From the NCBI RefSeq assembly GCF_012979235.1, contig NZ_JAATWC010000004.1, positions 137,243 to 169,242 of the forward strand: a DNA stretch of 32,000 bases, in the 5' to 3' direction. Shown here in pieces: positions 5,089 through 29,008 of the stretch (positions are counted from its first letter, which is position 1; every line of letters begins with the position of its first letter). Under the pieces are notes generated by a model. That model saw nothing but the letters and a program-made list of their open reading frames with translations. It had not been told where the DNA came from and did no database searches. This DNA is from Dissulfurirhabdus thermomarina. Its GTDB lineage: Bacteria; Desulfobacterota; Dissulfuribacteria; Dissulfuribacterales; Dissulfurirhabdaceae. The translations under genes and the position numbers were made by a program.

Positions 5089-5300
5089 GATGGCGTCGCC
5101 AAAAGTCGCGGGCTGCGGCGCTCTTCGGATGTTCTCGTCATTGCGGCGGAGCTCGGTACGACTCATTCCTCGATATCCTCGCGCCGTGCATTTGGCGATT
5201 TTTGCCGAGCCATCCACTCGGAGGGCTTTTTACGGGGCCATCTTCTATAATCCTCTATGCCGCAAGCGTCCCGCTTGGTGATGCCCGCGGCGCCATCATC
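5089..5300. repeat. Mosaic intergenic repeat, locus 1: A-type unit (5089-5242, reverse orientation) plus hairpin end-module (about 5262-5300, forward)
   Basis: 5089-5242 is about 85% identical to the reverse complement of 6281-6437 and to 17458-17603. Termini are GATGGCGTCGCC ... GGGGCCATC. 5262-5300 (GCAAGCGtccCGCTTGGTGATGCCCGCGGCGCCATCATC) recurs at 14720-14765, 21088-21128 and 28809-28850. Confidence 0.85.
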
Positions 5301-5330
5301 GAAAAGGCCTCCCCCGGTGCGGGGGAGGCC
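5301..5330 (-). terminator. Rho-independent terminator of the OMP gene
   Basis: Perfect 10-bp stem GGCCTCCCCC / GGGGGAGGCC with a 5-nt loop (5306-5330). Read on the minus strand it is followed by TTTTC. Lies 48 nt downstream of the stop at 5378. Confidence 0.6.
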
Positions 5331-5377
5331 GAGGGAGGCGGGACTCCTGGCCGGCCCGCCAAAGGTCGACGCCATCT

Positions 5378-6256
5378 TCAGAAGGCGTACTGGATGGAGA
5401 GGACGTAGGCCCTCCCGAAGGCCGCCCGCTTCTGGAGCGGCGCGGTCTTCCGGTAGGTCCGGTCGCCCGTGTCCGCGTAGGAGGCCACCAGCGTGAGATT
5501 CGGGTTCGGCATGTAGGCCGCGTGGGCCTCCCAGATGGAGTGGGTCGTGTACCGGGTGGCATCCCCCTCGATGACCCTGCCCACGTCGGCGTCCTGCTGG
5601 TACTCCCAGCCCACGATGAACCCGCCGGGGAGCACGGTCTCGACGTTGCCGAAGAAGACCGTGTCCCGGTCGTCGCCGAAGCCCAGCACGCCCCGGACGT
5701 AACCCTTGGTCCAGAGGAGGCCGGCGTTCAGGATCACCGGGACGGGAAGGGCGCCGAACATCTTGGTGGCCACGACGTAGCCGTCGACGTCGGTGACGTC
5801 GCGGGCCGGCGCCGCGCTGAACTCGGTATGCTTCCAGATGGCGCCGGCGGAGACGGCGGGCAGGAGACCGATCCCGAACCCGCCCTCCTGCACGAGGTTG
5901 ACCTTCAGGGAGAGGTTGTCCTTGTCCACGTTCTCGATGCCCTCGATATCCACGAACTCGTGGCTGTAGCCCAGCTCCAGGCGGTTGAAGAAGGCGATGT
6001 TCGCCCCCACGGACCACCAGTCGATGTCCGACTCGGTGAGCCCAGCGGTCCAGACCCCGACCTGGGGCCGGGAGACCGCCCGGCTCCCGAGCAGCCCGCC
6101 CGCCTCCCCCTTGACGGGGTTGGCGACGTAGGCGAAGGGATTCAGGGCGCACCCGCCCACGCCCTCGAAGTTGGTGAGCGGGGCGCCGGCCAGGGCCGCC
6201 CCCTCCAGGCACCAGCAGAGCCCCAGGAACAGGGACAGGGACACGATCTTTCTCAT
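5378..6256 (-). CDS. Putative outer-membrane beta-barrel protein (DUF3034-like)
   Basis: Start chosen at the internal ATG (6256), preceded by GGAGGAAG. Signal peptide is MRKIVSLSLFLGLCWCLEGAALA. Sequence alternates amphipathic beta-strand-like segments and ends in an aromatic residue (...SIQYAF), typical of OMPs. Confidence 0.6.
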   Translation of the reverse strand: MRKIVSLSLFLGLCWCLEGAALAGAPLTNFEGVGGCALNPFAYVANPVKGEAGGLLGSRAVSRPQVGVWTAGLTESDIDWWSVGANIAFFNRLELGYSHEFVDIEGIENVDKDNLSLKVNLVQEGGFGIGLLPAVSAGAIWKHTEFSAAPARDVTDVDGYVVATKMFGALPVPVILNAGLLWTKGYVRGVLGFGDDRDTVFFGNVETVLPGGFIVGWEYQQDADVGRVIEGDATRYTTHSIWEAHAAYMPNPNLTLVASYADTGDRTYRKTAPLQKRAAFGRAYVLSIQYAF

Positions 6257-6280
6257 GGGCTTCCTCCTCTCCGATGGGTT

Positions 6281-6437
6281 GATGGCCTCGTAAAAAGTCC
6301 TCTGATGTGGACGGCTCAGCAAGAATCTCCAAATGCACGGCGCAAGGATGTTGTGGAATGAGGCGTAGTTGAGCTACGCCGAAATGACGGGAACATCCGG
6401 AGCAACACAGCAGCCCGCGACTTTTGGCGACGCCATC
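6281..6437 (+). repeat. Mosaic intergenic repeat, locus 2 (A-type unit, forward)
   Basis: GATGGCCTCGTAAAAAG...GCGACTTTTGGCGACGCCATC. Homologous along its full length to 5089-5242 (reverse complement) and 17458-17603. Contains the hairpin GGCGTAG-TTGAG-CTACGCC (6362-6380). Confidence 0.85.
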
Positions 6438-6487
6438 ATGGGTTGTCGATGGGCCTCCCCCGGGCAGGCGGGGCGGCCGCAGGCGCC

Positions 6488-7429
6488 TCAGCGCTCGTAG
6501 AAACCGAAACCGTTGACCGCCATGGGGACCGCGGTGTCGGAGGCGACCTCGAGCACCGATCCGTCATAGAGCCGCACCCGCCGGTAGCCCAAGAGGTCGC
6601 GCAGCACGAAGTAGCCGAGGGCGGCCCTGAGGCCGTGGTCGCTGTAGACCACGATCTCCGCGGAGCGATCCTCCGGGAGGCCGATCCCCCGGGCGATGGC
6701 CTGGAGTTCCTCCCTGGGCCGGAAGACGGATGGGCTGAAGGCCTGGCCGCCGAGGGTGAGATAGGCGGCCGGCATGGGGATGGCGCCCCTCAGGTGCCCG
6801 TAGCGGGCGACGTGGGCCTTCTTCTCGTGGCCGATGTAGGCGTCCATGTCCCGGAGGTCCACGAAGACCGCCGTGCCGGAACGCAGCCGCGCCTTGACCT
6901 CGTCCAGGCCGATGCGCCGGTCGGCCGCGACGGCGGGGACGAAGTCTCCCGGCTCCGGCACGGCGGGGCGCTTCGTGACCGGGAGTCCGGCCTGGCGCCA
7001 GGCCTCGAAACCGCCGTCCAGGAGGGCGGCCTTCCCGTGGCCCAGGGTCTCCAGTGTCCACAGGACCCGGGCGCTCCGCGCCGTATCCTCCGCGGTGACG
7101 CCCTGGTCGTAGATCACCACGAAGGCGTCGTTTCGCACCCCATAGGAGCGCAACCTCGCCGCCAGTTCCCCCACCGGCGGCATCATGAAGCCCCGGAACC
7201 GTTCATCCATGGTCTGCCAGGGGCCGAAGGCCTGCACCGCCCCCGGAATGTGGCCCTGCCCGTACCGGGAGAAGGTCCGCACGTCCAGGACGACCACCCC
7301 GCGGTCCTCCCGGTGCTTGGCGAGCCACTGAGCCGTGACCAGCGGATCGTGGGCCGGGGCGGGCCCGGCGCACGAAAGGAACACGGCGGCGCAGGCGGCC
7401 GCGATCAGGGCATGGATCGTCGTCTTCAT
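6488..7429 (-). CDS. Periplasmic tandem-rhodanese-domain protein (SseA/thiosulfate sulfurtransferase-like), with Ser at the catalytic Cys position
   Basis: 313 aa. Signal peptide MKTTIHALIAAACAAVFLSCAGPAPA. Two rhodanese repeats (VVLDVR...GHIPGA; FVDLRD...GHLRGA). The second-domain active-site loop reads VVYSDHGLRAA instead of CxxGxR. Start overlaps the upstream stop (ATGA). Confidence 0.8.
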   Translation of the reverse strand: MKTTIHALIAAACAAVFLSCAGPAPAHDPLVTAQWLAKHREDRGVVVLDVRTFSRYGQGHIPGAVQAFGPWQTMDERFRGFMMPPVGELAARLRSYGVRNDAFVVIYDQGVTAEDTARSARVLWTLETLGHGKAALLDGGFEAWRQAGLPVTKRPAVPEPGDFVPAVAADRRIGLDEVKARLRSGTAVFVDLRDMDAYIGHEKKAHVARYGHLRGAIPMPAAYLTLGGQAFSPSVFRPREELQAIARGIGLPEDRSAEIVVYSDHGLRAALGYFVLRDLLGYRRVRLYDGSVLEVASDTAVPMAVNGFGFYER

Positions 7430-8421
7430 CTCCGTCGCCTCCTGTCGTCATCCGGGCCGGCGGCCCGGCCGGAAGGCCGCCCCCACGAGAAGCGTTCCAG
7501 GGGAAGGTCCCCGCGCCGCCGGCAGTACTCCAGCATGGACCCGTCATAGACCCGCACGTTCTCGTAGCCGAGGACGTCGTGGAGCACGAGGTAGTCGATG
7601 CCCGCGAACTGGGCGGTGTTGCAGTAGACGATGATCCCGGCCCCCTTGTCCGCGGGGAGCCCCACGCCGCGGGCCAAGGCCTCGAGGACGGCCTCGTCCT
7701 TCAGGGTGGCTGGCGCCCGGTTGCGCCCGGCATTCGTGAGATAGGCCGCCGGCAGGCTCACCGACGAGGGGATGTGCCCGTAGCAGGCGACGTCGGCGCG
7801 CTTCGTGTGGCCGAAGTGCTGGTCCGGGTTCCGGGCGTCCACGAGGAAGGTGCGCGGATCGGCGATGGCGCGCCGCACGTCGTCGAGGCCGGCGATCGCG
7901 CGCGGGTCGCGCCGGGCGACGAAGTCCCCCCTGCGCGGCGCCGGCTCGTCCTTGACCACCTTCCGGCCCTCGAAGGTCCACTTCGTGAAGCCCCCGTTCA
8001 GCATGGAGACCCGTTCGAGCCCGTTGGCCTTGAGGATCCAGTAGACGGCCCCGGCCTTGGAGGCGTCGCTCACCGTGTTCCCGTGGGCATAGACCACCAC
8101 GTGGGAGTCGCGGTTCACCCCGGCCTCCTGGAGGAGGTCGGTGAGTTCGCCCTCGGGCACCATGAGGAGCTCGCCCTCGTCCCCCGGTGGCTCCATCTCC
8201 CCGTAGGGCACGCTCACCGCCCCCGGGATGTGGGCGAAGGCGTAGTTGGCCTCGGTCCGTACGTCCATCACCACGAGGCCCTTTCGGCCGAGGTGCCCGG
8301 CGAGCCAGGCCGTGTCCACGAGGGGCGGGGCCCCGCCCGCGGCCGCCCCGGGGGCCAGGCCCATGGCCAGGCACACCAGCCAGCCGATCACGCCGCTTCC
8401 GAATCCGGTCCTTTTCTTCAT
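7426..8421 (-). CDS. Periplasmic tandem-rhodanese-domain sulfurtransferase (catalytic Cys present)
   Basis: Start at ATG 8421, preceded by GAAGGAGG. Signal peptide MKKRTGFGSGVIGWLVCLAMGLAPGAAA. Two rhodanese repeats. The active-site loop is IIVYCNTAQFAG. Has an unusual Arg/Asp-rich 30-aa C-terminal tail. Confidence 0.8.
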   Translation of the reverse strand: MKKRTGFGSGVIGWLVCLAMGLAPGAAAGGAPPLVDTAWLAGHLGRKGLVVMDVRTEANYAFAHIPGAVSVPYGEMEPPGDEGELLMVPEGELTDLLQEAGVNRDSHVVVYAHGNTVSDASKAGAVYWILKANGLERVSMLNGGFTKWTFEGRKVVKDEPAPRRGDFVARRDPRAIAGLDDVRRAIADPRTFLVDARNPDQHFGHTKRADVACYGHIPSSVSLPAAYLTNAGRNRAPATLKDEAVLEALARGVGLPADKGAGIIVYCNTAQFAGIDYLVLHDVLGYENVRVYDGSMLEYCRRRGDLPLERFSWGRPSGRAAGPDDDRRRRR

Positions 8422-8477
8422 GTCCACTGCGCCGCCTCCTTCACCCGGTCCACCCGTTCGCCCGGTCCGCGCCGCCA

Positions 8478-9836: not shown

Positions 9837-9872
9837 GGGCACGTCACCTCCTCTTGGCCGTCGGGCCGTTAA

Positions 9873-9887
9873 TACCACGTTGTGGTA
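9873..9887 (-). promoter_or_regulatory. Perfect inverted repeat TACCAC-N3-GTGGTA (candidate operator or 5'-UTR hairpin)
   Basis: TACCACGTTGTGGTA lies just downstream of the predicted -10 element of the cytochrome operon, about +7 to +21 from the predicted TSS. Confidence 0.45.
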
Positions 9888-9889
9888 CT

Positions 9890-10010
9890 CAACTGGGATT
9901 TTCATAAATGAACGCGGTTTTTATGTCAAGAATTTTTATTTATCTGGATTTACCGTTGTTTTATGAAAATATTTATACTTTTTTATCTTTTTATTGTTTT
10001 TTTATCGCTG
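9890..10010. promoter_or_regulatory. AT-rich (about 20-25% GC) island with phased T-tracts in the divergent intergenic region
   Basis: Seven T3-7AT tracts end at about 9924, 9939, 9964, 9976, 9986, 9994 and 10005. The last four have roughly helical spacing. The flanking genome is about 70% GC. Confidence 0.7.
9901..9929 (-). promoter_or_regulatory. Sigma70-type promoter of the cytochrome-rhodanese operon
   Basis: On the minus strand: TTGACA (9929-9924), a 17-nt spacer, then TATGAA (9906-9901). It sits at the edge of the AT-rich island and about 65 nt upstream of the ATG at 9836. Confidence 0.55.
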
Positions 10011-10263
10011 GATGCCGTGCCGCCCTCGCAAAAAGGCTCCGGGGGGATGGCCGGGCAGAGATCCCGGATGCCGGCGCGAGGACGTCGGGGAACGGGGCGG
10101 GCCGCGGGCCGCCGAACGGGCGAGGTCACCCGGATCATCCCGGGTTTCGGTGCATTCTCGCAGCGCCACCATGCGCCGGGACGGGAAGAGGGCTTCCGCG
10201 CCTCCCCGATTCTGGTATCCTGGATCCCCGGACCGGCGACGGCCCGATCGAGGCCCGGAGACA

Positions 10264-10656
10264 ATGGACGGCACTCACTTCATGAGGGCCCGGCGGCTCC
10301 TCGGAAAGACCCAGAAGCAGATGGCGGAGCTCCTCGGGATCTCCCTGAAGGCGGTCTGCAGCTACGAGCAGGGCTGGCGGCGGGTCCCTCCCCACGTGGA
10401 GCGGCAGGTCTACTTCCTCATCGCCTCCAGGCGGGGCCTCGCGGAGGGCATGACTCCCTGCTGGGAGGCCAAGGACTGCCCCGACGAACGGCGGCGCTGC
10501 TGCCCCGCCTGGGAGTTCAACGCGGGGCGGCTCTGCTGGTTCATCAGCGGAACGGTCTGCGAATGTAACGCCCACCGAAACTGGGACGAAAAGATGCGCA
10601 TCTGCAAGGAGTGCCACGTCCTGGGGCAGATCCTGGACATGTTCGCGGAGCCCTGA
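10264..10656 (+). CDS. XRE-family helix-turn-helix regulator with a C-terminal 9-cysteine (two Cys-Trp) domain
   Basis: 130 aa from ATG 10264 (GGAG 5 nt upstream). HTH segment is RARRLLGKTQKQMAELLGISLKAVCSYEQG. C-terminal segment is PCWEAKDCPDERRRCCPAWEFNAGRLCWFISGTVCECNAHRNWDEKMRICKECH. Confidence 0.75.
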   Translation: MDGTHFMRARRLLGKTQKQMAELLGISLKAVCSYEQGWRRVPPHVERQVYFLIASRRGLAEGMTPCWEAKDCPDERRRCCPAWEFNAGRLCWFISGTVCECNAHRNWDEKMRICKECHVLGQILDMFAEP

Positions 10657-10737
10657 GGCCGAAAGGGAGGGGCCGCCGAGGCGCCGGACCGACGCGGGGA
10701 GACGGGCGCCGCCCCGGCGAGGGAGGGGAGGCCGCCG

Positions 10738-11169
10738 TCAGAAGGTGGCCGGGTCCTCGGGCGGAAGCGCCGCCTCGTCGAAGGGCAGGACCCCGAGCCG
10801 ATCCAGTTCCCCCTCCACCGCGGCCAGCCACCCCTCTGGGTCGATACCCGGGGGGAGCCGTCCCTCCAGGGCCTGCTCGGTAAGGCGGGCCAGCCCCTCG
10901 AAGTCGAACCCCGGCGAGACGGCGCCGCGGGCGGCGAGGTGGCGGAAGAGGGCCGCGTCGTCCTCGAGGTCCAGCCCGGCGGAGGCCCCGTGCACCCGGG
11001 CATGCCACTGCATGGCGTGGATCAGGGTGTCGTAGAGGGTGGACACCCCGGCCGCGAGCTTGCCCTGCCGGATCCGGCGCCGCGCCCCGCGAAGGTGCAG
11101 GCGCGAGCGCTGGAGGAGGGCGGCCGCGGGGTCCATGTGCCGTTCGTCGAGGAGCCCGAAGTGCGGCAT
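10738..11169 (-). CDS. Hypothetical protein (helical, 143 aa)
   Basis: ORF starts 4 nt after the stop of the upstream CDF-like gene. Codon usage is consistent with coding. No motif was recognised with confidence. Confidence 0.5.
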   Translation of the reverse strand: MPHFGLLDERHMDPAAALLQRSRLHLRGARRRIRQGKLAAGVSTLYDTLIHAMQWHARVHGASAGLDLEDDAALFRHLAARGAVSPGFDFEGLARLTEQALEGRLPPGIDPEGWLAAVEGELDRLGVLPFDEAALPPEDPATF

Positions 11170-11173
11170 GGCC

Positions 11174-11836
11174 CTACCCGGTTTCCCCGCTGCAGCCGCA
11201 GGCGGCGCAGCGGCAGGTGGCGGCGCCCCGGGCCTTCCCGAAGGCCTCCCGCCCCTCCCGGAGGGCGAAGGCGGCGATGAGAAGCGCCCCGGCGGCGTCG
11301 AGCCCGCCCACCCCGGTCCATTCGGTGCCGAGGCTCGCCCCCAGGAGGACGAAGGAGAGGTAGAGACAAGTCCGGGTACAGGCGGCGTCGGCCAGGATGG
11401 CGTCGGAGTCCAGGGCCCGCCCCACCCGGACCTTGGCCCGGATGAGGGCCCACATGGTGACGATGGAGACCAAGGCCACCACCACGCCCCAGAAGGTGGT
11501 CACCGGGGCGTGCCCCGAGGCGAGGCTGGCCGCAGCCCCGGCCGCGAGGCCGGCCGCCAGGAGGTAGAAGGCCGTCCCGGTGATGCGGAGGGCACGGCGT
11601 TCGAAGGGGTCGGGGGAGCGGTCCGGGTTCCGGCGGATGCGCCGCGCCATGTGCCAGACCCCCACGCCGGAGATCACCTCCACGAAGGAATCCACCCCGA
11701 AGCCGAAGAGGGAGAGGGTCTCGTCCTCCAGGCCGAAGAAGACGGACACCGCCCCCTCGGCCAGGTTGTAGACCGCGGTGAAGGCGGCCAGCCAGGCCGC
11801 CCGGGCGTAGAGGGCATCGCGCGCGCCGGGGGTCAC
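11174..11836 (-). CDS. Cation-efflux (CDF)-like membrane protein, transmembrane domain only, with a Cys-rich C-terminal tail
   Basis: 220 aa with about 6 hydrophobic helices. Acidic residues in TM segments (FFGLEDETLSLFGFGVDSFVEV, LDSDAILADAAC) are typical of Cation_efflux-type proteins. The tail is CRCAACGCSGETG. Confidence 0.55.
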   Translation of the reverse strand: MTPGARDALYARAAWLAAFTAVYNLAEGAVSVFFGLEDETLSLFGFGVDSFVEVISGVGVWHMARRIRRNPDRSPDPFERRALRITGTAFYLLAAGLAAGAAASLASGHAPVTTFWGVVVALVSIVTMWALIRAKVRVGRALDSDAILADAACTRTCLYLSFVLLGASLGTEWTGVGGLDAAGALLIAAFALREGREAFGKARGAATCRCAACGCSGETG

Positions 11837-14399: not shown

Positions 14400-14449
14400 C
14401 AGGCTCGCCCTCCCGGAAGGCCGCCGGAGAAGACGACGGCCGAGTAAGC

Positions 14450-14765
14450 GCCGCCGAGGACACGGCACACGGATGCCGCGGAACCGGGCGGAGCTGGATA
14501 CGCCGCCATGACGAGGGCGTCCGGAGTGCCGCCGCAGCCCACGACTTTTGGCGACGTCATCAAGAGAGATGGCCGCTTAAAACGGCCAATCGGAAAAAAT
14601 CGCCACCTGCACAGCGCGAGGATGGATAGGCGAGAATCGCCGAGGACAAGGCGCGACCATCGCGAGGAACGAGGCCTTCCCGGAGACTCCGGGGAGGCCG
14701 AGGGGTTTGAAGCACCGCCGCCGAGCGCCCCGCTTGGCGATTGTCGCCACGCCATCGGCGCCATC
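14450..14765 (+). repeat. Mosaic intergenic repeat, locus 3: 5'-truncated A-type unit (to 14561) plus B-type unit (14568-14765)
   Basis: ...CCGCAGCCCACGACTTTTGGCGACGTCATC is followed by GATGGCCGCTTAAAACGGCC...GCGAGAATCGCCGAGGACAAGGCGCGACCATCGCGAGGAACGAGGCC...GCCGAGCGCCCCGCTTGGCGATTGTCGCCACGCCATCGGCGCCATC. Contains a 13-bp hairpin at 14673-14699. Fills nearly all of the nadK / peptidase spacer. Confidence 0.8.
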
Positions 14766-14766
14766 G

Positions 14767-17430
14767 TCAGGGGCCGACCCGGACCAGGACGTAGGCGTCG
14801 GGGTCGAGCAGCCGCCGGGCCACGGCCTGCACCGCGGCGGCGTCCACCCGCCGGATCTCCTGGACGTAGCGTTCCCCGAAGTTGTAGCCCAGCCCGTAGA
14901 GCTCGTTGAGCGCCAGGTCCATGGCCTGGGCCCCGTTGGTCTGGAGACCGATCTCGTAGTTGCCGGTGATCCACTCCTTGGCGCGGTCCAGCTCCTGCCG
15001 GGAGACCGGCGCGCGGGCCACCTCCAGGAGCTCGGCCCAGAGGGCCTTCACGGCCGCGTCCCGCTTTCCGGGCGCCGTGGCGATGTAGCAGGCGAAGGAG
15101 CCGTAGTCCACGCCGAGGCCCACGAAGGAGGTCACGGCGTAGGCGAAGGACTGCTCGTCGCGCAGGTGGCGGAAGAGGCGCCCTCCCTGGCCGGAGAGCA
15201 CGGCGCTCAGGACCTCGAGGGGGAATCGATCCGGGCTCCGGAAGGTGGCGCCCGGAAAGCCGAGCACGATGTGGACCTGCTCCTTGTCGCGCTTCAGGGT
15301 CACGGTCCGGGGCTTGGTGAGGGGCTCCGGCGCCGGGAGCTCGGGGGGCGGCTTCTCCGCCCCGCCGCCCCACCCCCCGAAGAGGGCCTCCACCTCGGAG
15401 AGCACCTCGGCGGTACGGACGTCACCCACGATGGAGAGCACGCCCCGGGACGGAACGGCGAATTCCCGGTAGGCCTTTCGCAGCCGTGCGGCGGTCACGG
15501 CCCGGACCACGGCCGGGCGCCCGACGGGGTCGAGCCCGTAGGGATGGGGGCTGAAGAGGAGGCGGCGGAACTCGCGGATGGCCACACTGGGGAGGTAGTC
15601 CTCCTGGCGGCTGATCTGGGAGAGGATCTGGGGCCGGAGCCGCTCCACCTCCTCCGGCGAGAAGGCCGGGGCGAGCACCGCCTCGGCGAAGAGGGAAAGG
15701 CCCTTGTCCAGCCCGCTCGCCAGGAAGTCGGCCTGGAGCCCGAAGGTGTTCCACCCGGAGAACCCGCTGACGGACCCGCCGAGCCGTTCCACCGCCTCGG
15801 CGAAGCCGCGGGCGCTGCGCCCCTCGGTCCCCCGCGTCCAGCACCGGGCGAGATAGGTGAAGAGCCCGTTGGTGCGCTTCGTCTCGTAGCGGGTCCCGCC
15901 GGGGAAGACCAGCCGAACGGAGACGGAGGGCACCTCGTGGGCCTCCCGCACCAGCACGGTGAGCCCGTTGGGGAGGACGCGGCGTACCACCGGGTGGGCC
16001 AGGCCCTCCTTCGGGGCCGGCCCCTCGGCCCGCACCCGGTCCTCGGCGTCGGCGGCCAGCGCCCCGAGATCCGCGGCGGAGAGGGCGGGGACGTCGGCCC
16101 CCTTGGGAAGCACCATGGCCACGTTGAGGTGCCGGCGGCGGAAGTACTTCTCGGCCAGGCGGCGGATGTCGTCCGGGCCCACCCGGTCCACGGCCTCGAG
16201 GTAGCGGCGCTCGGCCGCCGGGTCGCCGGCCAGGGTCTCGAAGAGCCCGAGGTTGCGGGCCTCGCCCTGCATGGTCTCGTGGTCCTTGACGAAGTCGGTT
16301 CGGACCCGGACCTTGGCCCGCTCCACCTCTTCGTCGAGGACCTTCTCGGACTTCAGCCGGAAGAGCTCTTCGAGGAGGCGGGAGAGGGCCTCCGGGACCT
16401 TCTCGGGATCCAGGGCCGCTGTGACCTCGAAGAGCCCGGGGCCGGCGGGGGTGAAGGCGGAGGCGTCCACGGCGTGGACCAGCTGGTCCCGGTCCCGGAG
16501 GCGCACGTTGAGGCGTGAACTCTCCCCGTCGGCCAGCAACGCCGCCAGTACGTCGAGGGCCGGGACGTCCGCCGCGTTGAAGCCGGGGATACCGGAAAAC
16601 CCGAGGGCCAGGTAGCCCTCCTGGATGTCCATCTCCTCGCGGGCCAGGCGCGGCTCGGCCTGGGGCAGCTCGTCCGGGATGGACGCCTCGGCCGGGGGGG
16701 CGGCGGGCGCCCGCCCGAAGGCGGCGTCGATCCGGGCCAGGGTCCGGGCGGCGTCCACGTCGCCGGCCACCACCACGGCCATCTGGGAAGGCCGGTAGCG
16801 CCGGGCCCGGTAGGCCAGGATGTCCGCCCGGGTGAACCGCCGGACCGTCTTCGGGAAGCCGATGACCGGCCGTCGGTAGGGGTGCACCCGGTAGGCGGTG
16901 GCCAGGAGCAGCCGGGAGAGCCGGGTGCGCGGCTGGTCCTCGCGCATGTGGATCTCCTCGAGCACGACCTTCTTCTCCCGCTCCAGCTCCGCCGGGTCGA
17001 ACTTGGCGTGGAAGACGGCGTCGGCCAGGACATCCAGGGCGGCGTCGAGGTGTTCCCGGGGCACCACGCAGTGGTAGACCGTATAGTCGAGGGAGGTGTA
17101 GGCGTTGATACTGCCGCCCACGGACTCGATCAGGCGGGCCAGTTCCCCGGGGCCGCGCCGCTCGGTCCCCTTGAAGATCATGTGCTCGATGAGGTGGGTG
17201 ATCCCGGCCTCGGCGTCGGACTCGTAGGCGCTGCCGGCCTTGACCCACACCTGGACCGCCGCCACGGGGGCCCGGCGGCTCTCCTGGACCACGGCGGTCA
17301 GGCCGTTGGCGAGACGCACCTTCTCGACCCCCGGCATGACCTCAAGACCCCAGGCGGCGGGGGCCGCGGCCAGCAGCCCCGCTGCCAGCACCACCCCCGC
17401 CGATACGCGACACCAGCATGGAAGGTTCAT
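14767..17430 (-). CDS. Secreted M16-family (pitrilysin/insulinase-like) zinc peptidase, duplicated (two M16 active/inactive domain pairs)
   Basis: 887 aa from ATG 17430. Signal peptide is MNLPCWCRVSAGVVLAAGLLAAAPAAWG. Has an HLIEH (HxxEH) zinc motif in the first half. The second half repeats the fold without HxxEH. Confidence 0.85.
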   Translation of the reverse strand: MNLPCWCRVSAGVVLAAGLLAAAPAAWGLEVMPGVEKVRLANGLTAVVQESRRAPVAAVQVWVKAGSAYESDAEAGITHLIEHMIFKGTERRGPGELARLIESVGGSINAYTSLDYTVYHCVVPREHLDAALDVLADAVFHAKFDPAELEREKKVVLEEIHMREDQPRTRLSRLLLATAYRVHPYRRPVIGFPKTVRRFTRADILAYRARRYRPSQMAVVVAGDVDAARTLARIDAAFGRAPAAPPAEASIPDELPQAEPRLAREEMDIQEGYLALGFSGIPGFNAADVPALDVLAALLADGESSRLNVRLRDRDQLVHAVDASAFTPAGPGLFEVTAALDPEKVPEALSRLLEELFRLKSEKVLDEEVERAKVRVRTDFVKDHETMQGEARNLGLFETLAGDPAAERRYLEAVDRVGPDDIRRLAEKYFRRRHLNVAMVLPKGADVPALSAADLGALAADAEDRVRAEGPAPKEGLAHPVVRRVLPNGLTVLVREAHEVPSVSVRLVFPGGTRYETKRTNGLFTYLARCWTRGTEGRSARGFAEAVERLGGSVSGFSGWNTFGLQADFLASGLDKGLSLFAEAVLAPAFSPEEVERLRPQILSQISRQEDYLPSVAIREFRRLLFSPHPYGLDPVGRPAVVRAVTAARLRKAYREFAVPSRGVLSIVGDVRTAEVLSEVEALFGGWGGGAEKPPPELPAPEPLTKPRTVTLKRDKEQVHIVLGFPGATFRSPDRFPLEVLSAVLSGQGGRLFRHLRDEQSFAYAVTSFVGLGVDYGSFACYIATAPGKRDAAVKALWAELLEVARAPVSRQELDRAKEWITGNYEIGLQTNGAQAMDLALNELYGLGYNFGERYVQEIRRVDAAAVQAVARRLLDPDAYVLVRVGP

Positions 17431-17457: not shown

Positions 17458-17773
17458 GATGGCCCCGTAAAAAGGCCTCTGGATGGATGGCCAAGCAAGA
17501 TGCAAAGCGCGAGGATATCGAGGAACAAAGAGCACTTAGGCACGCCGCAATGACGAGGACATCCGAAACAATGCCACAGTTGGTGACTTTTTGCGACGCC
17601 ATCAAGAAATCGCCGCCTCCCGTGAACAGAGTCCCGGCATCGGCACGGACGGCGAAGCGAGAACCGCCACGGACGAGACGCGGCCACCGCGAGGAACGAG
17701 GCGCACCGAACTCCGCCGCAACGACGCGAGCATCCGGGGCATCACGGCCGCCCAGGCGTTTTGCGACGCCATC
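17458..17773 (+). repeat. Mosaic intergenic repeat, locus 4: tandem A-type (17458-17603) plus variant unit (17604-17773)
   Basis: Both units end in TTTTGCGACGCCATC. The first starts GATGGCCCCGTAAAAAGGCC. The second shares the core GCGAGAACCGCCACGGACGAGACGCGGCCACCGCGAGGAACGAGGCG with loci 3, 6 and 7. Confidence 0.85.
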
Positions 17774-17840
17774 ACGAATTTATCTGGAATTTCCAATAGT
17801 CATATATGGAGAACCGAATGAATGCCCATTCATGCCGGGC

Positions 17841-17869
17841 TTGACACGCCCTATATATTTTGGTAGAGA
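17841..17869 (+). promoter_or_regulatory. Putative sigma70-type promoter of the YTD cluster
   Basis: TTGACA (17841-17846), a 17-nt spacer ending in TGG (extended -10-like), then TAGAGA (17864-17869). The local sequence is AT-rich (CTATATATTTTGG). Confidence 0.4.
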
Positions 17870-17960
17870 CGAACCGTTTCCTTCGGGGAAAGCCGCCGAA
17901 ACACCGGTGTTTCCCGGTCACCGGGTCCTTCAAGGGTAACCTTCTTGCAGGGGGGATGCA

Positions 17961-20582: not shown

Positions 20583-21089
20583 GTGCACCCCGTCCTCCAG
20601 GCCATCCGCGAACGGCGAAGCGTCCGGCACTTCCGGCCCGATCCCGTGGACCCCGAGACGGTGCGCCAGATCCTCGAGGCCGGCGCCTGGGCCCCCTCCG
20701 GGCTGAACAACCAGCCGTGGCGCTTCGCGGTGGTGCGGGACGGGGCCACGCGGGAGGCCCTGGCGGCACTCACCCGCTACGCCCGGGTGATCCGGGAGGC
20801 GCCGGTCCTCTTGCCCGTCTTCGTGGACCGGTCGGTCATGTACCACGAGGTGAAGGACCACCAGGCCGTGGGCGCCTGCCTCCAGAACATGTTGCTGGCG
20901 GCCCATGCCCTGGGCCTGGGGGCGGTCTGGCTGGGCGAGATCCTGAAGAACGCCGACCGGGTCCGGGAGATCCTGGGCCTGGAGCCGAACCTCGAACTCA
21001 TGGCCGTGGTGGCCGTGGGACACCCGGCCCGGCGGGACCAGGCCTCCACCCGGCGGCCCCTGTCCGAGCTGGTGGTGAAGGAGATCTGA
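20583..21089 (+). CDS. Nitroreductase-family flavoprotein
   Basis: 168 aa. Contains RRSVRHFRPDPV, APSGLNNQPWRF and LGAVWLG motifs typical of the NADH/FMN nitroreductase family. GTG start. Confidence 0.8.
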   Translation: MHPVLQAIRERRSVRHFRPDPVDPETVRQILEAGAWAPSGLNNQPWRFAVVRDGATREALAALTRYARVIREAPVLLPVFVDRSVMYHEVKDHQAVGACLQNMLLAAHALGLGAVWLGEILKNADRVREILGLEPNLELMAVVAVGHPARRDQASTRRPLSELVVKEI

Positions 21090-21128
21090 TGACGGCGCCG
21101 CGGGAATCACCAAGCGGGGCGCTTGGTG
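21088..21128 (-). repeat. Stand-alone hairpin end-module of the mosaic repeat family (locus 5)
   Basis: GATGACGGCGCCGCGGGAATCACCAAGCGgggCGCTTGGTG is the reverse complement of the R2 module seen at 5262-5300, 14720-14765 and 28809-28850. It has a 9-bp stem and overlaps the nitroreductase stop codon. Confidence 0.7.
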
Positions 21129-21168
21129 GTTCCGGCCGAACCGTCCACTTCTGGAAGGAGTCCCTGTC

Positions 21169-21651
21169 ATGACGAAGATGCGTGAACCGGCTGCTTCCCC
21201 CCGCCTCCTCCCCTTTCTGGCCGCGGCGATCCTGGCCCTCTCCGGCTGCGCCCGGCTCACCGGCGGCGACGCGGCCGCTCCCGGCGACACCGGCGAGCCG
21301 GGCGCCCGGCCGCTCCCGGCGGCCCCCCAGGTGACCTACGAGTTCCCCGACCTCCCCTTCCCGGTGGAGCTCGAACGCGTCCCCGGCGACAGCATGATGA
21401 GCCGGACCCCGGACTTCCAGGGCGGCCTCCTGGTACTCCAGGGGCGGGTGACCCCGAAGTCCCTGGTGGAGTTCTTCGCCAAGACCCTTCCGGAGCACGG
21501 CTGGAAGCAGGTGGGCTCCCTCTACCACAGCCGGAGCCTCCTCGCCTTCACGAAACCCGGTGACGCCTTCTGCTTCATCCAGATCTCCGAGCCGCGGCTG
21601 AGCCTCCAGACCCGGGTGGAGATCTGGGTGAACGAGCCGCGGTCGCAATAG
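21169..21651 (+). CDS. Lipoprotein of unknown function
   Basis: 160 aa. Signal peptide with lipobox LALSGC. No catalytic motif recognised. Confidence 0.65.
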   Translation: MTKMREPAASPRLLPFLAAAILALSGCARLTGGDAAAPGDTGEPGARPLPAAPQVTYEFPDLPFPVELERVPGDSMMSRTPDFQGGLLVLQGRVTPKSLVEFFAKTLPEHGWKQVGSLYHSRSLLAFTKPGDAFCFIQISEPRLSLQTRVEIWVNEPRSQ

Positions 21652-23579: not shown

Positions 23580-23809
23580 CGGAGCACTGGCAGCGGATCT
23601 CGGATCCCCCGCTGGAGACCTGCGAGGCCTGCGGCGGGACCCTCACCAAGCTGATCTCCCACTCCTCCTTCCACCTCAAGGGAAGCGGGTGGTACGTCAC
23701 CGACTACGCCGGAAAGAAGAGCGGCTCGAGCGCCCAGGCGGAAGGCGGCTCCAAGTCCGAGGCCAAGTCGGCGACCAAGTCCGGCGCCTCATCGTCGGAC
23801 GACGCCTGA
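23537..23809 (+). CDS. FmdB-family zinc-ribbon protein (CxxC...CxxC)
   Basis: N-terminus MPIYEYECRKCHKVTE...CEACGG is the hallmark of the FmdB/putative regulatory zinc-ribbon family. Strong RBS AAGGAGG. Ser/Lys-rich tail. Confidence 0.85.
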   Translation: MPIYEYECRKCHKVTEHWQRISDPPLETCEACGGTLTKLISHSSFHLKGSGWYVTDYAGKKSGSSAQAEGGSKSEAKSATKSGASSSDDA

Positions 23810-23833
23810 GCCCGGCATCGGGCCGAAGCAACG

Positions 23834-23861
23834 GAGGGGGGGCGGCCCGCCCCCTCTTTTT
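23834..23861 (+). terminator. Rho-independent terminator
   Basis: GAGGGGG ... CCCCCTC stem followed by TTTTT, 25 nt after the FmdB stop. The repeat element starts immediately after the T-tract. Confidence 0.7.
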
Positions 23862-24049
23862 GATGGCCTTAAAAAGCCCTTTGAGTAGATGGCTCGGCAG
23901 AAATCGCCAAATGCAAGGCGCGCGGATGGAGAGGCGGGAATCGTCGAGGGCAAGGTGCGACCATCGCGGGGAACGAGGCGTCACCGGGGACTGCGAGGGG
24001 CCGAGGGGCTTGAAGCACCACCGTCATTGGTGATTCTCGCGACGCCATC
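23862..24049 (+). repeat. Mosaic intergenic repeat, locus 6 (B-type unit, forward)
   Basis: GATGGCCTTAAAAAGCCC...AAATCGCCAAATGCAAGGCGCGCGGATGGAGAGGCGGGAATCGTCGAGGGCAAGGTGCGACCATCGCGGGGAACGAGGCG...TCTCGCGACGCCATC. Collinear with 14568-14765 and with the reverse complement of 28809-29008. Confidence 0.85.
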
Positions 24050-24097
24050 CTTCTTGGACGTTGCGCCCAGTCCACCGGGCCCTCCCACGGAGCCGAC

Positions 24098-25024: not shown

Positions 25025-25030
25025 GGGTGC

Positions 25031-25050
25031 CGCCGGGGGCGCCCCCGGCG
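25031..25050. terminator. GC-only 20-bp palindrome between convergent genes (possible bidirectional terminator hairpin)
   Basis: CGCCGGGGGCGCCCCCGGCG occupies most of the 27-nt gap between the HDOD stop (25024) and the J-domain gene stop (25052). There is no T-tract. Confidence 0.35.
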
Positions 25051-25051
25051 C

Positions 25052-26047
25052 CTAGCTCCCCGTCCACCCCCGCAGCCGGCGCAGCAGGAGGAAGGCCTTC
25101 CGGAGACGGATGAACGCCTCGTGGGCGCCGCCGGTGTCGGGATGCGCGGCCCGGGCCTTTTGCCGGAAGAGCCGGGAAAACTCCCGGGCGGTCATGGCCT
25201 CGAAGCGTTCCCGGTCGAGTCCGAAGACCGCGAGCGCCGCCCCGGCCTCGTCCCGCGCCGGGGCCCCGCCCGCCGGGGCCCCGCCCCGGGGCGTGGCGTA
25301 GGCCACGTCGAACCAGAGGACGAGGTACTTCAAGAGGAAGGGCGGCAGGCGCCCGGCCGGGGTCGAGTCGGCCGGGTCCCTGAGGGCAGGCTCCTCCGCC
25401 AGCCGACAGATCGCCTCCAGGACGTAGCGGTCCATGAGGGCCGGATCCTGGGCGCCGGGGACGAACCGGGTGGGGCGGGGGGCGAACCGGGCCGGGAGAT
25501 CCATCACCGCGTAGAGGTAGTCCTTGAGCTCCCAGGGCCGCAGCTCGGCCTCCATCCGGTCGAGCCGCTGCTCGATCTCGTCGCGGGACTTCTCCAGGAG
25601 GAAGTTGTAGAAGGCCATGGGCCGCCGGAGGAGCGCCTCCATGTCGATCCGGCCGAACTTGAGGAAGCAGAGGCGGCGCCGGTCGAAGGGATGGATGCGG
25701 GCCTGGGCAGCGGCGAGCTCCGCCTCGGAGGGCCGGGGCGCCCGCCCCCCCGACCGCCGCCGGCCGGTGAAGTGGGCCACCGCGCGGCGCACCACAGGGT
25801 CGATGAAGACCTCGAAGACCTCCTCGAGTTCCTCGTCGCGGGGATGGACGCCAAGGGCCGCCAGCGCCTCGGTGACCCCGGGATCCACGTAGAATCCGTA
25901 GGCGCCCGTGTAGACGATGAACCGGCCGGGGTCCTCCCCGAGGTCGAAGAGATCCCGGCTCACCCACCGCCCGTCGGGGGCCCGGACGGACTCGCGGATG
26001 TAGTAGTGGAACGTCCCTCCCGGCCGCCGCTCGCGCGCAAGATACAT
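25052..26047 (-). CDS. Hypothetical protein with a C-terminal J-domain-like segment (HPD motif)
   Basis: 331 aa. C-terminus FSRLFRQKARAAHPDTGGAHEAFIRLRKAFLLL matches the J-domain helix II-HPD-helix III pattern. A GGAGGG RBS sits in the 12-nt gap after the ATPase stop. Confidence 0.55.
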   Translation of the reverse strand: MYLARERRPGGTFHYYIRESVRAPDGRWVSRDLFDLGEDPGRFIVYTGAYGFYVDPGVTEALAALGVHPRDEELEEVFEVFIDPVVRRAVAHFTGRRRSGGRAPRPSEAELAAAQARIHPFDRRRLCFLKFGRIDMEALLRRPMAFYNFLLEKSRDEIEQRLDRMEAELRPWELKDYLYAVMDLPARFAPRPTRFVPGAQDPALMDRYVLEAICRLAEEPALRDPADSTPAGRLPPFLLKYLVLWFDVAYATPRGGAPAGGAPARDEAGAALAVFGLDRERFEAMTAREFSRLFRQKARAAHPDTGGAHEAFIRLRKAFLLLRRLRGWTGS

Positions 26048-26059
26048 GGGGGTCCCTCC

Positions 26060-28711
26060 CTACCGGTACCGGATCCAGCCCCGCCGCAGGGCGGCCTTCT
26101 CCGCCTCCACGGCCAGGAACACCACGGTGGAGAGGGCCAGCGTCACCCCGAGCTCCACGGGGGTGAGGGCCCGGGTCCGGAAGAGGCCCTGGAAGAAGGG
26201 CAGGTAGACCACGAGGAGCTGAAGGGCCGTGCTCCCGGCCACGGTGGCGGCGAGGAACCGGTTGGAGAAGGGCCCCCAGGAAAAGAAGGAGGCCCGGTCG
26301 GACCGGATGGCCAGGGCGTGACCGAACTGGGAGAGGCAGAGCACCGTGAAGACCATGGTCTGCCAGTGCCACCCCTGTCGGATCGCCAGGGCCTGGGTCG
26401 TCAGGCAGACGCCGCCCATGAGCAACCCCACCACCAGGAGGTGCTGCCAGAGGCCGCCGGCGAAGAGGCTCTCTCCCGGGGGCCGCGGCGGCCGCCGCAT
26501 GACGTCGGGCTCCGCCCGTTCCAGGCCCAGGGCGAGGCCCGGCAGCCCGTCGGTGATGAGGTTGACCCACAGGATGTGGACGGGCAGGAGCGGCACCGGC
26601 AGCCCCAGGAACGGGGCGAGGAAAACGGTCCAGATCTCGCCGGCGTTGCTGGTGAGGGTGTACTTGAAGAACTTGCGGATGTTGTCGTAGATGCGGCGCC
26701 CCTCTTCCACCGCGCCCACGATGCTGGCGAAGTTGTCGTCGAGGAGGATCATGTCCGCCGCTTCCTTGGCGACGTCGGTGCCGACCTTCCCCATGGCCAC
26801 ACCGATCTCGGCCTGTTTGAGGGCGGGGGCGTCGTTCACGCCGTCCCCCGTCATGGCCACGGCCTCGCCCCGGCGCTGGAGGGCCGCCACGAGGCGGAGC
26901 TTCTCCTCCGGCGCCACGCGGGCATAGACCTGGACTTCCCCGGCCAGGGCCTCGAATTCCGCCTCGGACCGGGCCGCCAGCTCCGCGCCGGTCACCACGG
27001 CGTGCGTGGCCCCGCCCCGGACCAGGCCGATCCGGCGGGCGATGGAGAGGGCGGTGAGCGGATGGTCGCCGGTGATCATCACCGGCCGGATGCCGGCCTC
27101 GTGGCACCGGGCCACCGCGTCGGCCGCCTCGGGGCGGGGCGGATCCAGGGCGGCCGCCATCCCGAGGAATTCGAGCCCCTGCTCCACCACCCCGGGGGAG
27201 AGGTCGGCCGGCCGCTCCGCCCACCGCCGGCAGGCGAAGGCGAGGACGCGAAGCCCCTCGGCGGCCAGCGCCCGGTGGACACCGTCCGCCGCGGCCCGGT
27301 CGAGGCCCGGGCACATGGCCGCCACGGCCTCGAAGCCGCCCTTGGTGAGGGAGAGGAAACCGCCGCCGGGGACGGCGTGCACCGTGGTCATGGCCTGCCG
27401 TTGCGAATCGAAGGGGATCTCCCCGACCCGCGGGTGGAGGGCCTCGAGGTCGGCCTTCCGGCACCCGTGCACCGCCGCCCGTTCCACCAGGGCGGTCTCC
27501 GTGGGGTCGCCCGCGAGCCCCCCGGCCTCGTCCACGCCCACGTCGTTGGAGACGGCGAGGGCGAGACCGAGCCACCGCGCCGCCTCCGGCGTGTCCGGGC
27601 CGCAGAGGGGCCGGTCCGCCGGGATCTCGCGAAGGTCCGGGCCCACCAGGCGCTCCACGTGCATCCGGTTCTGGGTGAGCGTCCCGGTCTTGTCCGTGCA
27701 GATGGTGGTGACGGAGCCCAGGGTCTCCACCGCCGGCAGCCGCCGGATGAGCACGTGGCGCCGTACCATCTGCCGCGCCCCGAGGGCCAGGGAGATGGTG
27801 ACCACCGCCGGGAGCGCCTCCGGGACCGCGGCCACGGCGAGGCTCACGGCGGTGAGGAACATGAGCACGGGCTCCTCGCCCCGCCACAGCCCCGCCGCGA
27901 AGACCACCGCGCAGATGACGAGGGCCGCCGCCGCCAGGTTCCGCCCCACCCGGACGAGCCGCTTCTGGAGCGGGGTTCGGAGTTCCTCCGCCCCCTCCAG
28001 GAGACGGGCGATGTGCCCCACCTGGGTCGCCATGCCCGTGGCCACCGCCACGCCGCGGCCGCGGCCGTGGGTGACCCGGGTCCCCTTGAAGGCCATGTTG
28101 ACCCGGTCGCCCAGGGGGGTCCCGGCGGGAAGGACCACCTCCGCCGCCTTCTCCACCGGCTGGGACTCCCCGGTGAGGGGGGATTCGTCCACCTGGAGGG
28201 CGGCGGCCTCGACGAGCCGCAGGTCCGCCGGGACCACCTGGCCCGCCTCGAGCGCCACCAGGTCGCCCGGGACCAGGTCGGCGGCGGGGATGCGCCGGAG
28301 GACGCCCCCCCGGACCACCGTGGCCTCCGGGGCCGCCATGGCCCGAAGGGCCTCCATGGCGCGCTCGGCCCGGTACTCCTGGACGAACCCCACCACGGCG
28401 TTCAGGCAGACGATGACCAGGATGACCACGGTGTCCCGGGCCTCGCCGATGAGGCCGGAGACCACGGCGGCGACGAGGAGTAGCAGGATCATGGCGTCCC
28501 GGAACTGGTCGAGGGCCATTCGGACCAGGGACCGGCCCCGGGAGGCCCGGAGGCGGTTGGGGCCGTGGCGGGCCAGCCGCCGGGCGGCCTCCGCCTCGGC
28601 CAGGCCGCCCTCGGCGGCGCCGAGGCGCCGGAGGACCTCTTCCGGCGGCATCCCGTGGGCCGGCCGGGCCGGGTCGGTCTCGGGCACAGCTGTCATCCCG
28701 GTTTCTTCCAT
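26060..28711 (-). CDS. Cation-transporting P-type ATPase (type II, Ca2+/Mg2+-like)
   Basis: Contains PLTGESQPV (TGES), ICTDKTGTLTQN (DKTGT), MITGDHPLTA and MTGDGVNDAPALK motifs, with about 10 TM helices. Start is ambiguous between ATG 28711 and ATG 28696. Confidence 0.9.
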   Translation of the reverse strand: MEETGMTAVPETDPARPAHGMPPEEVLRRLGAAEGGLAEAEAARRLARHGPNRLRASRGRSLVRMALDQFRDAMILLLLVAAVVSGLIGEARDTVVILVIVCLNAVVGFVQEYRAERAMEALRAMAAPEATVVRGGVLRRIPAADLVPGDLVALEAGQVVPADLRLVEAAALQVDESPLTGESQPVEKAAEVVLPAGTPLGDRVNMAFKGTRVTHGRGRGVAVATGMATQVGHIARLLEGAEELRTPLQKRLVRVGRNLAAAALVICAVVFAAGLWRGEEPVLMFLTAVSLAVAAVPEALPAVVTISLALGARQMVRRHVLIRRLPAVETLGSVTTICTDKTGTLTQNRMHVERLVGPDLREIPADRPLCGPDTPEAARWLGLALAVSNDVGVDEAGGLAGDPTETALVERAAVHGCRKADLEALHPRVGEIPFDSQRQAMTTVHAVPGGGFLSLTKGGFEAVAAMCPGLDRAAADGVHRALAAEGLRVLAFACRRWAERPADLSPGVVEQGLEFLGMAAALDPPRPEAADAVARCHEAGIRPVMITGDHPLTALSIARRIGLVRGGATHAVVTGAELAARSEAEFEALAGEVQVYARVAPEEKLRLVAALQRRGEAVAMTGDGVNDAPALKQAEIGVAMGKVGTDVAKEAADMILLDDNFASIVGAVEEGRRIYDNIRKFFKYTLTSNAGEIWTVFLAPFLGLPVPLLPVHILWVNLITDGLPGLALGLERAEPDVMRRPPRPPGESLFAGGLWQHLLVVGLLMGGVCLTTQALAIRQGWHWQTMVFTVLCLSQFGHALAIRSDRASFFSWGPFSNRFLAATVAGSTALQLLVVYLPFFQGLFRTRALTPVELGVTLALSTVVFLAVEAEKAALRRGWIRYR

Positions 28712-28808
28712 GAGCGAAGGCGCGCCACGGCACCGATGCGAAGGCAGGTGAGTGCCGTAGGCACTGCCATCCAGGCTATCACCTGGATCCGTAGACGTAA
28801 GAACAGAT

Positions 28809-29008
28809 GATGGCGTCGCGGGCATCGCCAAGCGGAACGCTTGGCGGCGTTGTTTCCCATCGCATCGTCACTGCGGCGTACTTCGAGTACGCCTCGTTCC
28901 TCGCGATGGCCGCGCCTTGTGCTCGGCGATTCCCGCTGAGCCATCCGTGCCGTGCATCCGGCGATCTCTGCTCAACCATCCACTCAGAGGCCTTTTTACG
29001 AGGCCATC
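28809..29008 (-). repeat. Mosaic intergenic repeat, locus 7 (composite unit, reverse orientation)
   Basis: Its reverse complement reads GATGGCCTCGTAAAAAGGCCTCTGAGTGGATGG...GGAATCGCCGAGCACAAGGCGCGGCCATCGCGAGGAACGAGGCGTACTCGAAGTACGCC...CCAAGCGTTCCGCTTGGCGATGCCCGCGACGCCATC. Flanked by 21-nt imperfect direct repeats. Confidence 0.85.

Follow-up and report, generated by a model that had tools for sequence, protein, structure and literature searches.

The stretch of DNA analysed here (the window) comprises 32,000 nucleotides (nt) of the genome of Dissulfurirhabdus thermomarina, at positions 137,243 to 169,242 of contig NZ_JAATWC010000004.1 (assembly GCF_012979235.1), and carries a family of short intergenic repeats that resemble transposable elements of the miniature inverted-repeat type (MITEs). 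The host is a thermophilic sulfur disproportionator with a genome of 2.46 Mb and a guanine-cytosine (GC) content of 71.1% (PMC7463578). The DUF3034 protein encoded beside copies 1 and 2 of the family shows 100% identity to its NCBI counterpart from this species. A gene map of the window was built from third-position GC content, start-codon inspection and Pfam. On this map, 8 of the roughly 11 intergenic gaps longer than 75 nt hold a copy of the family, which thus makes up most of the longer spacers over the portion of this compact thermophile genome covered here. The copies occur in both orientations relative to the flanking genes and, as the initial annotation had stated, between genes. The sole overlap with a gene is an isolated right end of the element at 21088, whose terminus TGATGAC (with the preceding T) forms the TGA stop codon (21087–21089) of a nitroreductase gene (20583–21089); the insertion or its remnant thus sets the present C-terminus of the nitroreductase.

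The family was recovered independently by a whole-window repeat search, both as direct repeats (D1, D2, D3, and D8) and as inverted repeats (I1–I7, I11, I13, I14, I16, and I17). Examples are the 78-nt match between 5158–5235 and 23867–23944 (82% identity) and the 38-nt match of 5263–5300 to 21088–21125 and 28806–28843 (92%). Every locus was read, the copies were oriented and aligned with MAFFT, and a profile hidden Markov model made from the alignment was run over the window with nhmmer. The profile matched all seven loci at which related sequence had been reported before (E 1e-39 to 1e-5), together with an eighth copy that had been missed, degenerate and GC-enriched, at 10018–10171 (E 8e-9). 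The eight loci comprise ten elements and two solo ends, totalling 1611 nt or 5.0% of the window, compared with the earlier estimate of about 4%. The copies are 147–200 nt long and have no coding capacity; no frame is open across all of them, and stops interrupt every one of the six frames of copy 6, in agreement with the earlier view of a nucleic-acid-level element rather than a gene. Since spurious open reading frames (ORFs) cross the copies in this GC-rich genome, they are worth masking in annotation pipelines.

In the alignment, the copies are collinear and form a single element consisting of a left end, one or two 37-nt units, a hairpin core, and a right end, the last in two variants termed R1 and R2. 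The copies in the window are as follows, with the repeats of the whole-window search given by their D and I numbers.

5089–5242, minus strand: copy 1, short form; its left end bears two binding-site-like repeats and is followed by the hairpin core and an R1 right end (nhmmer E 1e-39, full model)
5263–5300, plus strand: solo right end of R2 type; hairpin CAAGCG-TCC-CGCTTG, then GATGCCCGCGGCGCCATC (I13 and I14 at 92%; nhmmer 5258–5297, E 1e-5)
6281–6437, plus strand: copy 2, short form, complete; left end 25 nt upstream of the start of the DUF3034 gene at 6256 (nhmmer E 1e-39)
10018–10171, plus strand: copy 8, degenerate, full-length, GC-enriched; 93 nt upstream of a small helix-turn-helix gene (10264–10656) and adjoining an AT-rich stretch (nhmmer model positions 7–162; I9)
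14430–14562, plus strand: copy 3a; left end degenerate, R1 right end intact (GACTTTTGGCGACGTCATC) (nhmmer 14431–14561, E 5e-25; D2 member, 80%)
14568–14765, plus strand: copy 3b, long form; two 37-nt units, long GC hairpin, R2-like end to 14756, then an extra GGCGCCATC (nhmmer 14569–14756, E 2e-35; D3, 79% to copy 6)
17458–17603, plus strand: copy 4a, short form with a 9-nt internal deletion; left end 28 nt upstream of the start of an M16 peptidase gene at 17430 (nhmmer E 7e-33)
17605–17773, plus strand: copy 4b; unit, core and R1 right end without the outer left end, directly abutting copy 4a (nhmmer 17619–17773, E 7e-26)
21088–21135, minus strand: solo right end of R2 type (I13 at 92%; nhmmer partial, 21091–21198, E 3e-7)
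23862–24049, plus strand: copy 6, long form, with two units, a long hairpin and an R2-like end, immediately past the terminator of a Zn-ribbon gene (nhmmer E 3e-12 and 2e-23)
28809–29008, minus strand: copy 7, long form, the most complete, with a left end, two successive units, the hairpin GGCGTAC-TCGAA-GTACGCC and an R2 right end, between divergent genes for a P-type ATPase and a ketopantoate-reductase-like protein (nhmmer E 3e-35 and 5e-11; I4, I5, I7, I14, and I17)

The left end of the element reads GATGGCCYCGTAAAAAGSCCTC. The 37-nt unit, which starts with GGATGGCTCGGCARAAATCGCC, occurs once in copies 1, 2, and 4a and twice in copies 3b, 6, and 7, and is followed by the core GAGGAAYGAGGCG with a short hairpin, the stretch CCGCAATGACGAG, and a right end that terminates in GCGACGCCATC. 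R1 and R2 align together as two homologous variants of one right end, R2 differing by about 9 extra nt and the hairpin CCAAGCG...CGCTTGG. A terminal inverted repeat of about 19 nt (consensus GATGGYSTCGYAAAAAGTC), usually with a T before and an A after it, bounds every complete window copy, and 12 foreign copies, on both sides. The right-end site, read on the complementary strand (GATGGCGTCGCAAAAAGTCGCCAACTGC), resembles the outer left terminus and is better matched by an inner left site, GATGGCTAAGCAAAAATCGCCAAATGC, located 28–29 nt further in. The left end therefore holds two direct copies of this site and the right end one inverted copy; in the long form of D. thermomarina, duplication of the 37-nt unit supplies the left end with a third. 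Besides unit number and right-end variant, the copies differ by truncation, by arrangement in tandem pairs (loci 3 and 4, with 5 nt, 14563–14567, between copies 3a and 3b), and by reduction to solo right ends (5263–5300 and 21088–21135).

The strings L, M, R1, and R2 by which the family was first described were all found as given, and a terminal inverted repeat is indeed present, at about 19 nt rather than 10. The notion of recombining modules was overstated, as all copies are collinear: M is the diverged second member of a tandem pair, the first being the 37-nt unit within L (D1, spacing 37), and R1 and R2 are alternatives of the same end instead of distinct modules.

Evidence of mobility was found in the flanks. 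With the ends set as GATGG...CCATC, 16 elements were scored, including copies on other contigs (L numbers), and perfect direct repeats of 6–7 bp were found to flank 7 of them, with a single mismatch in 5 more; the chance of a perfect 6- or 7-mer flank match is about 3e-4 per element. The perfect 7-bp repeats are those of window copy 2 (ATGGGTT at 6274–6280 and 6438–6444), L014, L006, and L002, and the perfect 6-bp repeats those of L008, L009, and L015. Repeats of 6 bp with one mismatch flank window copies 1 (TTCTAG/TTCTAT) and 6 (CTTTTT/CTTCTT), L012, L007, and L013. The composite of copies 4a and 4b is flanked by ATGGATT and ACGAATT, which match at 5 of 7 positions. Since GATGG is nearly always preceded by T, and CCATC nearly always followed by A, the element may in fact terminate in TGATGG...CCATCA, with a duplication of 4–5 bp; L009, window copy 1, and L006 fit a 6–7 bp duplication slightly better.

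An empty site was also identified. Contig L014 carries an element between the gene for PBP1A and a TPR/DnaG operon, with AAGGATT flanking it left and right. In a related metagenome-assembled genome (MAG), L020 (GCA_018814075.1; RpoD 92% identical), the orthologous spacer has a single AAGTGCT and no element, reading ...TCGGGCTGAAGTGCTGATCTCGG..., and L014 becomes collinear with it once the element and one repeat are removed. A third relative, L021, also lacks the element.

Relatives of the family are dispersed over several organisms, among them further sulfur-cycling members of the Desulfobacterota. When species-representative genomes were scanned with the left-end 22-mer, just two MAGs were returned, both of Thermodesulfobacteriota and each containing an AT-rich element bounded by the same ends; the source genome was not among them. 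Metagenome contigs matching the internal pattern GCARRAATCKNNAAATGCANGGCGC hold a full-length element of about 150 nt in 10 of 10 cases (nhmmer E 5e-32 to 2e-12), at unrelated chromosomal loci with neighbours such as PBP1A, DnaG, RpoD, LapB, and D-Ala-D-Ala carboxypeptidase; L014 encodes an RpoD with 100% identity to the one in a Desulfocapsaceae MAG. A full-length member of 157 nt was found at 11777–11933 of L004, a Logan contig of 50% GC from the closest DUF3034 relative having a long contig (64% protein identity). Across the metagenome, Logan, and Desulfobacterota MAG sources, the hosts of the foreign full-length relatives have a GC content of 47–60%. Pairwise identity is 75–86% among short window copies, 64–76% between window and foreign copies, and 91–98% within foreign subfamilies at different loci, of which single metagenomes hold several; the last range indicates recent movement in those genomes. 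The family provides a marker shared across several Thermodesulfobacteriota lineages of very different GC content. Catalogued bacterial MITEs mostly cluster in a single genus at a 95% identity cut-off (PMC11602168), which is far stricter than the identity between window and foreign copies here.

Several further observations concern these relatives. In a Desulfobacteraceae MAG, L001 647–733 is an 87-nt mini-element with the same terminal repeats (GATGGCATCGTAAAAAGTC ... GACTTTTTACGGTTCCATC) and an unrelated interior, so that the ends define a wider superfamily of small elements. A diverged member with an exact right-end 19-mer (nhmmer E 5e-6) is located upstream of a 374-aa ORF at 272–417 of L016 (IMGVR_UViG_3300033553_000705), a 4.5-kb contig classified as viral. 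A copy is found downstream of the DUF3034 gene, in the same orientation, in both D. thermomarina (5089–5242, at 136 nt) and L004 (11777–11933, at about 920 nt), and synteny between the two is not conserved beyond DUF3034, so that either coincidence or an old shared insertion could account for the shared position. In L004, a group II intron fragment (D1-D4; Rfam RF02001, 39.3 bits vs. a gathering threshold of 32, E 3.5e-6) lies at 11007–11175, between the DUF3034 gene and the copy of the element.

Searches for a partner transposase gave negative results throughout. Among the window genes, Pfam detected no transposase and no Y1 transposase domain, and hence nothing corresponding to the cognate repetitive extragenic palindrome (REP)-associated tyrosine transposase (RAYT) or IS200/IS605 TnpA envisaged at first. 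No pair of family ends lies 1–3 kb apart in the window or the related loci, and there is no transposase among ten genes flanking foreign copies. A plasmid blastn search gave no match to the family, and three scans of viral contigs yielded the one diverged copy and no transposase.

Nor did the databases and literature searched offer a name for the family, in keeping with the earlier impression that it is not a named one. A search of the whole window against Rfam, a check that had likewise been suggested, gave no hits at the gathering threshold, and permissive searches gave nothing overlapping the copies in window 5000–6500 or L011 12000–12462 (E up to 10) or the copy in L004 10800–12050 (E up to 0.1). 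The D. thermomarina genome papers make no mention of repeats, transposases or mobile elements (PMC7463578; PMC7478628). A literature search on end-sequence strings returned only unrelated primers and no paper with these ends, and no published name was found. The family may be present, unnamed, in the tables of an automated survey that catalogued 1.4 million bacterial MITEs without family names (PMC11602168).

The inverted ends, the flanking duplications, the empty site, the dispersal, and the absence of coding capacity together indicate that the repeats are very probably copies of a MITE, i.e., a non-coding DNA transposon of 150–200 nt moved in trans. Every feature of a MITE that could be looked for was found, the partner transposase excepted. 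On this account, the family is a genome parasite of a common sort, set apart here chiefly by how densely its copies lie and by the conserved shape of its fold-back. Five points weigh against it. The search of the window, of some 150 kb of related loci, of plasmids, and of viral contigs turned up no transposase gene bracketed by the family's ends. The boundary of the element is ambiguous by one base per side, and with it the length of the duplication. Among the D. thermomarina copies, only copy 2 has a perfect duplication and most have no clean one. The empty site comes from Desulfocapsaceae, and the nearest available relative of D. thermomarina has about 64% protein identity. Finally, the interior and the fold-back are conserved over 47–71% GC with compensatory changes, which exceeds what end-binding alone requires.

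To characterise the fold-back, 13 short-form copies representing at least five subfamilies were folded with RNAalifold. The consensus is a long fold-back of 36 pairs, in which 94.3% of cells are paired, compared with 28–54% when the partners are slid. In the inner helix (columns 72–76 with 120–124), all five pairs change on both sides between subfamilies (GGATGTT/AACATCC, CACATT/AATGTG, and CAATTG/CAATTG), and the observed covariation score was reached in none of 500 shuffles. Single copies also fold better than their dinucleotide shuffles: copy 2 has z −3.3 on one RNA strand and −2.15 on the other, and L008, folded as DNA, has z −5.1. Over the whole range of 47% to 71% GC, unpaired blocks (AAATGCA-N-GGCGC, for instance) show no variation. 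Based on the paired cells, the covariation, and the z-scores, the fold-back looks constrained, with the constraint acting on transposition, single-strand DNA or RNA; template-switch correction of quasi-palindromes is the neutral alternative. The combination of a covarying fold-back with a multi-site left end makes the family a tractable case for what a MITE needs beyond its terminal repeats.

These results are the main support for an explanation that adds to a MITE origin and does not replace it: that the fold-back has been kept by selection at the level of RNA or single-strand DNA, for example as a transcript stabiliser, a processing or termination site, or a small RNA, with copies retained to punctuate operons. 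The occupation of most longer intergenic gaps fits this explanation as well. Several observations speak against it. The copies occur in both orientations relative to transcription, and the wobble asymmetry (22 G-U vs. 10 A-C cells, about 15 vs. 9 events) singles out no strand. No sigma-70-like promoter was detected in any copy, and the terminator scan detected only weak stems of 4–6 bp followed by T-runs, with the copy read from right end to left end, which we rejected as a sign of function. A sigma-54 reading of TGGCGATTTTTGC was rejected on inspection, its GG-GC spacing being 8 rather than 10. The copies have no match in Rfam even at E 10, and template-switch correction or master-copy selection for transposability could produce the compensatory changes. 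We therefore consider selection for the fold-back unlikely, though still worth entertaining. A broader version, to which we would give slightly less credit, is that the fold-back functions as an RNA or single-strand DNA structure, is conserved across Thermodesulfobacteriota, and has been co-opted genome-wide in D. thermomarina, or else that it is a trace left by an undescribed transposase family requiring a structured multi-site substrate. If true, the co-opted element would be a module of intergenic punctuation, processing or regulation.

It is much harder to see the copies as independent small-RNA genes or cis-regulatory leaders rather than mobile DNA, which we regard as very improbable. Their length of about 150 nt, their structure, and their conservation across genera would suit such a role, as would the position of several copies 25–110 nt upstream of start codons. 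The flanking duplications and the empty site, however, show insertion. The direction in which neighbouring transcription would cross the copies is inconsistent: it would enter copies 2 and 3 and the solo end at the right, but copies 6 and 8 at the left. The flanking genes are functionally unrelated, and the copies lack a promoter or terminator signature as well as an Rfam family.

The earlier comparison with REPs and bacterial interspersed mosaic elements (BIMEs), i.e., mosaics of short palindromic units whose spread depends on a RAYT (Y1/HUH) transposase that works on single-strand hairpins, is if anything more doubtful still. The confinement to intergenic regions, the hairpins, and the mosaic look are all shared with REPs, and the solo hairpin-plus-GATGGCG ends of 38–48 nt (5263–5300 and 21088–21135) superficially resemble single REPs. 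HUH/RAYT and IS200/IS605-type elements are not known to make target-site duplications, which are present here along with a clean empty site. The elements are collinear, 150–200 nt long and bounded by true terminal inverted repeats, only the two solo ends being of REP size, and no window gene encodes a Y1 domain. Palindrome-associated transposable elements (PATEs), derived from IS200/IS605 and having subterminal hairpins without inverted ends or duplication, are ruled out by the presence of both features. Of the affinities first proposed (BIME/REP or MITE/PATE type), only that with MITEs is retained, as a non-coding, dispersed element with inverted ends. The explanation that fares worst, with hardly any probability left to it, is a local duplication or degraded-gene remnant confined to the region, which would suit eight loci clustered in 32 kb taken by themselves, but full-length relatives exist in at least 12 unrelated contigs of other organisms, so that the possibility raised at the outset that these are the only copies does not hold at family level, no frame is conserved, and assembly breaks imply more copies in the same genome.

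Those breaks were seen in Logan short-read contigs of run SRR11035951, of which four ends fall inside copies 1, 3b, and 6: L017 ends in copy 1 at 5130, L003 starts in copy 3b at 14646, and L003 and L019 break in copy 6. The longest exact stretch common to any two window copies is at most 28 nt, and the breaks thus imply closer, near-identical copies elsewhere in the D. thermomarina genome. The first HiSeq assembly, of 386–413 contigs (PMC7463578; PMC7478628), is consistent with such copies, and the elements probably explain the fragmentation of D. thermomarina short-read assemblies. No copy occurs in the tightly packed operon that fills the 8.5 kb left of the window (L017). In two D. thermomarina assemblies, contigs (one from Logan, the other JAAGRR010000003.1 of GCA_010499435.1) also end at about 30267–30325, in a region of about 80% GC with no family copy, and these ends likely reflect a coverage drop in extreme GC rather than a repeat.

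With a hairpin core between its inverted ends, the whole element folds back on itself, and its insertion duplicates 6–7 bp of target, or 4–5 bp should the flanking T and A be counted as part of it. If the repeats are a MITE, a DDE-type transposase made elsewhere would bind the repeated sites, pair the ends, and make short staggered cuts. The long form, the tandem pairs, and the solo ends may have arisen secondarily through slippage or recombination between repeated sites, insertion beside older copies, and deletion. The D. thermomarina copies are most likely decaying relics and probably immobile, as they are old (75–86% mutual identity) and the window contains no partner transposase. They may nevertheless affect genes, candidate effects being the stop codon at 21087–21089, the left ends located 25–28 nt before two start codons, and hairpins in transcripts.

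Some other features lie near the copies. The stretch at 9840–10015, which lies between divergent genes and adjoins copy 8, is AT-rich (37% GC), and an exact motif of 12–13 nt, TTTATCTGGA(A/T)TT, is found both there (9939–9951) and just past copy 4b (17779–17791), with none expected by shuffling. The spacer at 17774–17960 also contains the palindrome ATGAATG-CCC-ATTCAT, upstream of a sulfur-transporter/TusA operon, and the shared motif and the palindrome of these two spacers may represent an operator or promoter element. Two rhodanese-domain genes on the minus strand (6488–7429 and 7426–8376; Pfam) are tandem paralogs, giving rise to direct repeats 980 nt apart with 70–76% identity (D4, D6, and D10).

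The closest known systems are bacterial MITEs such as Correia/NEMIS of Neisseria and RUP of Streptococcus pneumoniae. Like these, the present family is small and non-coding, has inverted ends and target-site duplications, forms a fold-back, occurs in many intergenic copies in both orientations, and shows presence/absence polymorphism between relatives. It shares no sequence similarity with them, and differs in its duplication of 6–7 bp (or 4–5 bp), as opposed to the TA of Correia-type elements, and in a left end with two to three direct copies of the terminal site. Pneumococcal BOX elements consist of boxA, a variable number of boxB, and boxC, and offer an analogy in that left and right modules are partly inverted repeats and a middle unit varies in tandem number (here 37 nt, present once or twice). 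BOX is unrelated in sequence and belongs to a different host phylum, and the unit that varies in number in the present family is itself a further version of the binding-site-like repeat found at the termini. ERIC/IRU of enterobacteria are likewise analogous as imperfect palindromes of about 127–150 nt that are intergenic, found across genera, and variable in length through insertions and deletions; sequence similarity is again absent, and target-site duplications and an empty site are present here. REP/BIME with RAYT are similarly intergenic, hairpin-forming and apparently mosaic, but REPs are 20–40 nt long, are not known to have inverted ends or duplications, and depend on a Y1 transposase; the present elements are longer, have both of these features, and lie among window genes that encode no Y1 domain.

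As for a parent, IS21, IS3, and ISNCY/ISDol1 may be named as candidate families; no transposase with these ends was found in the searches above. IS21 elements have TG...CA termini, several direct binding-site repeats at their ends, and duplications of 4–8 bp, IS3 elements have TGA... termini and duplications of 3–5 bp, and the ISDol1 group has duplications of 6–7 bp and was first described in a Desulfobacterota host. In the literature searched, ISDol1 appeared only as a subgroup of ISNCY. The empty-site contig L020 itself starts (1–400) with an IS3-type orfA (HTH_Tnp_1), whose left end, TGAGGTAGGCTGAAAAAAGTGGACACC, is like the MITE ends in general layout (TGA..., A-run, GT) and differs in sequence. 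The type of mobile family is thus already known, and this sequence family is one for which no Rfam match or published name was found; its features of note are its density in a small thermophile genome, its spread over lineages of very different GC content, and its covarying fold-back.

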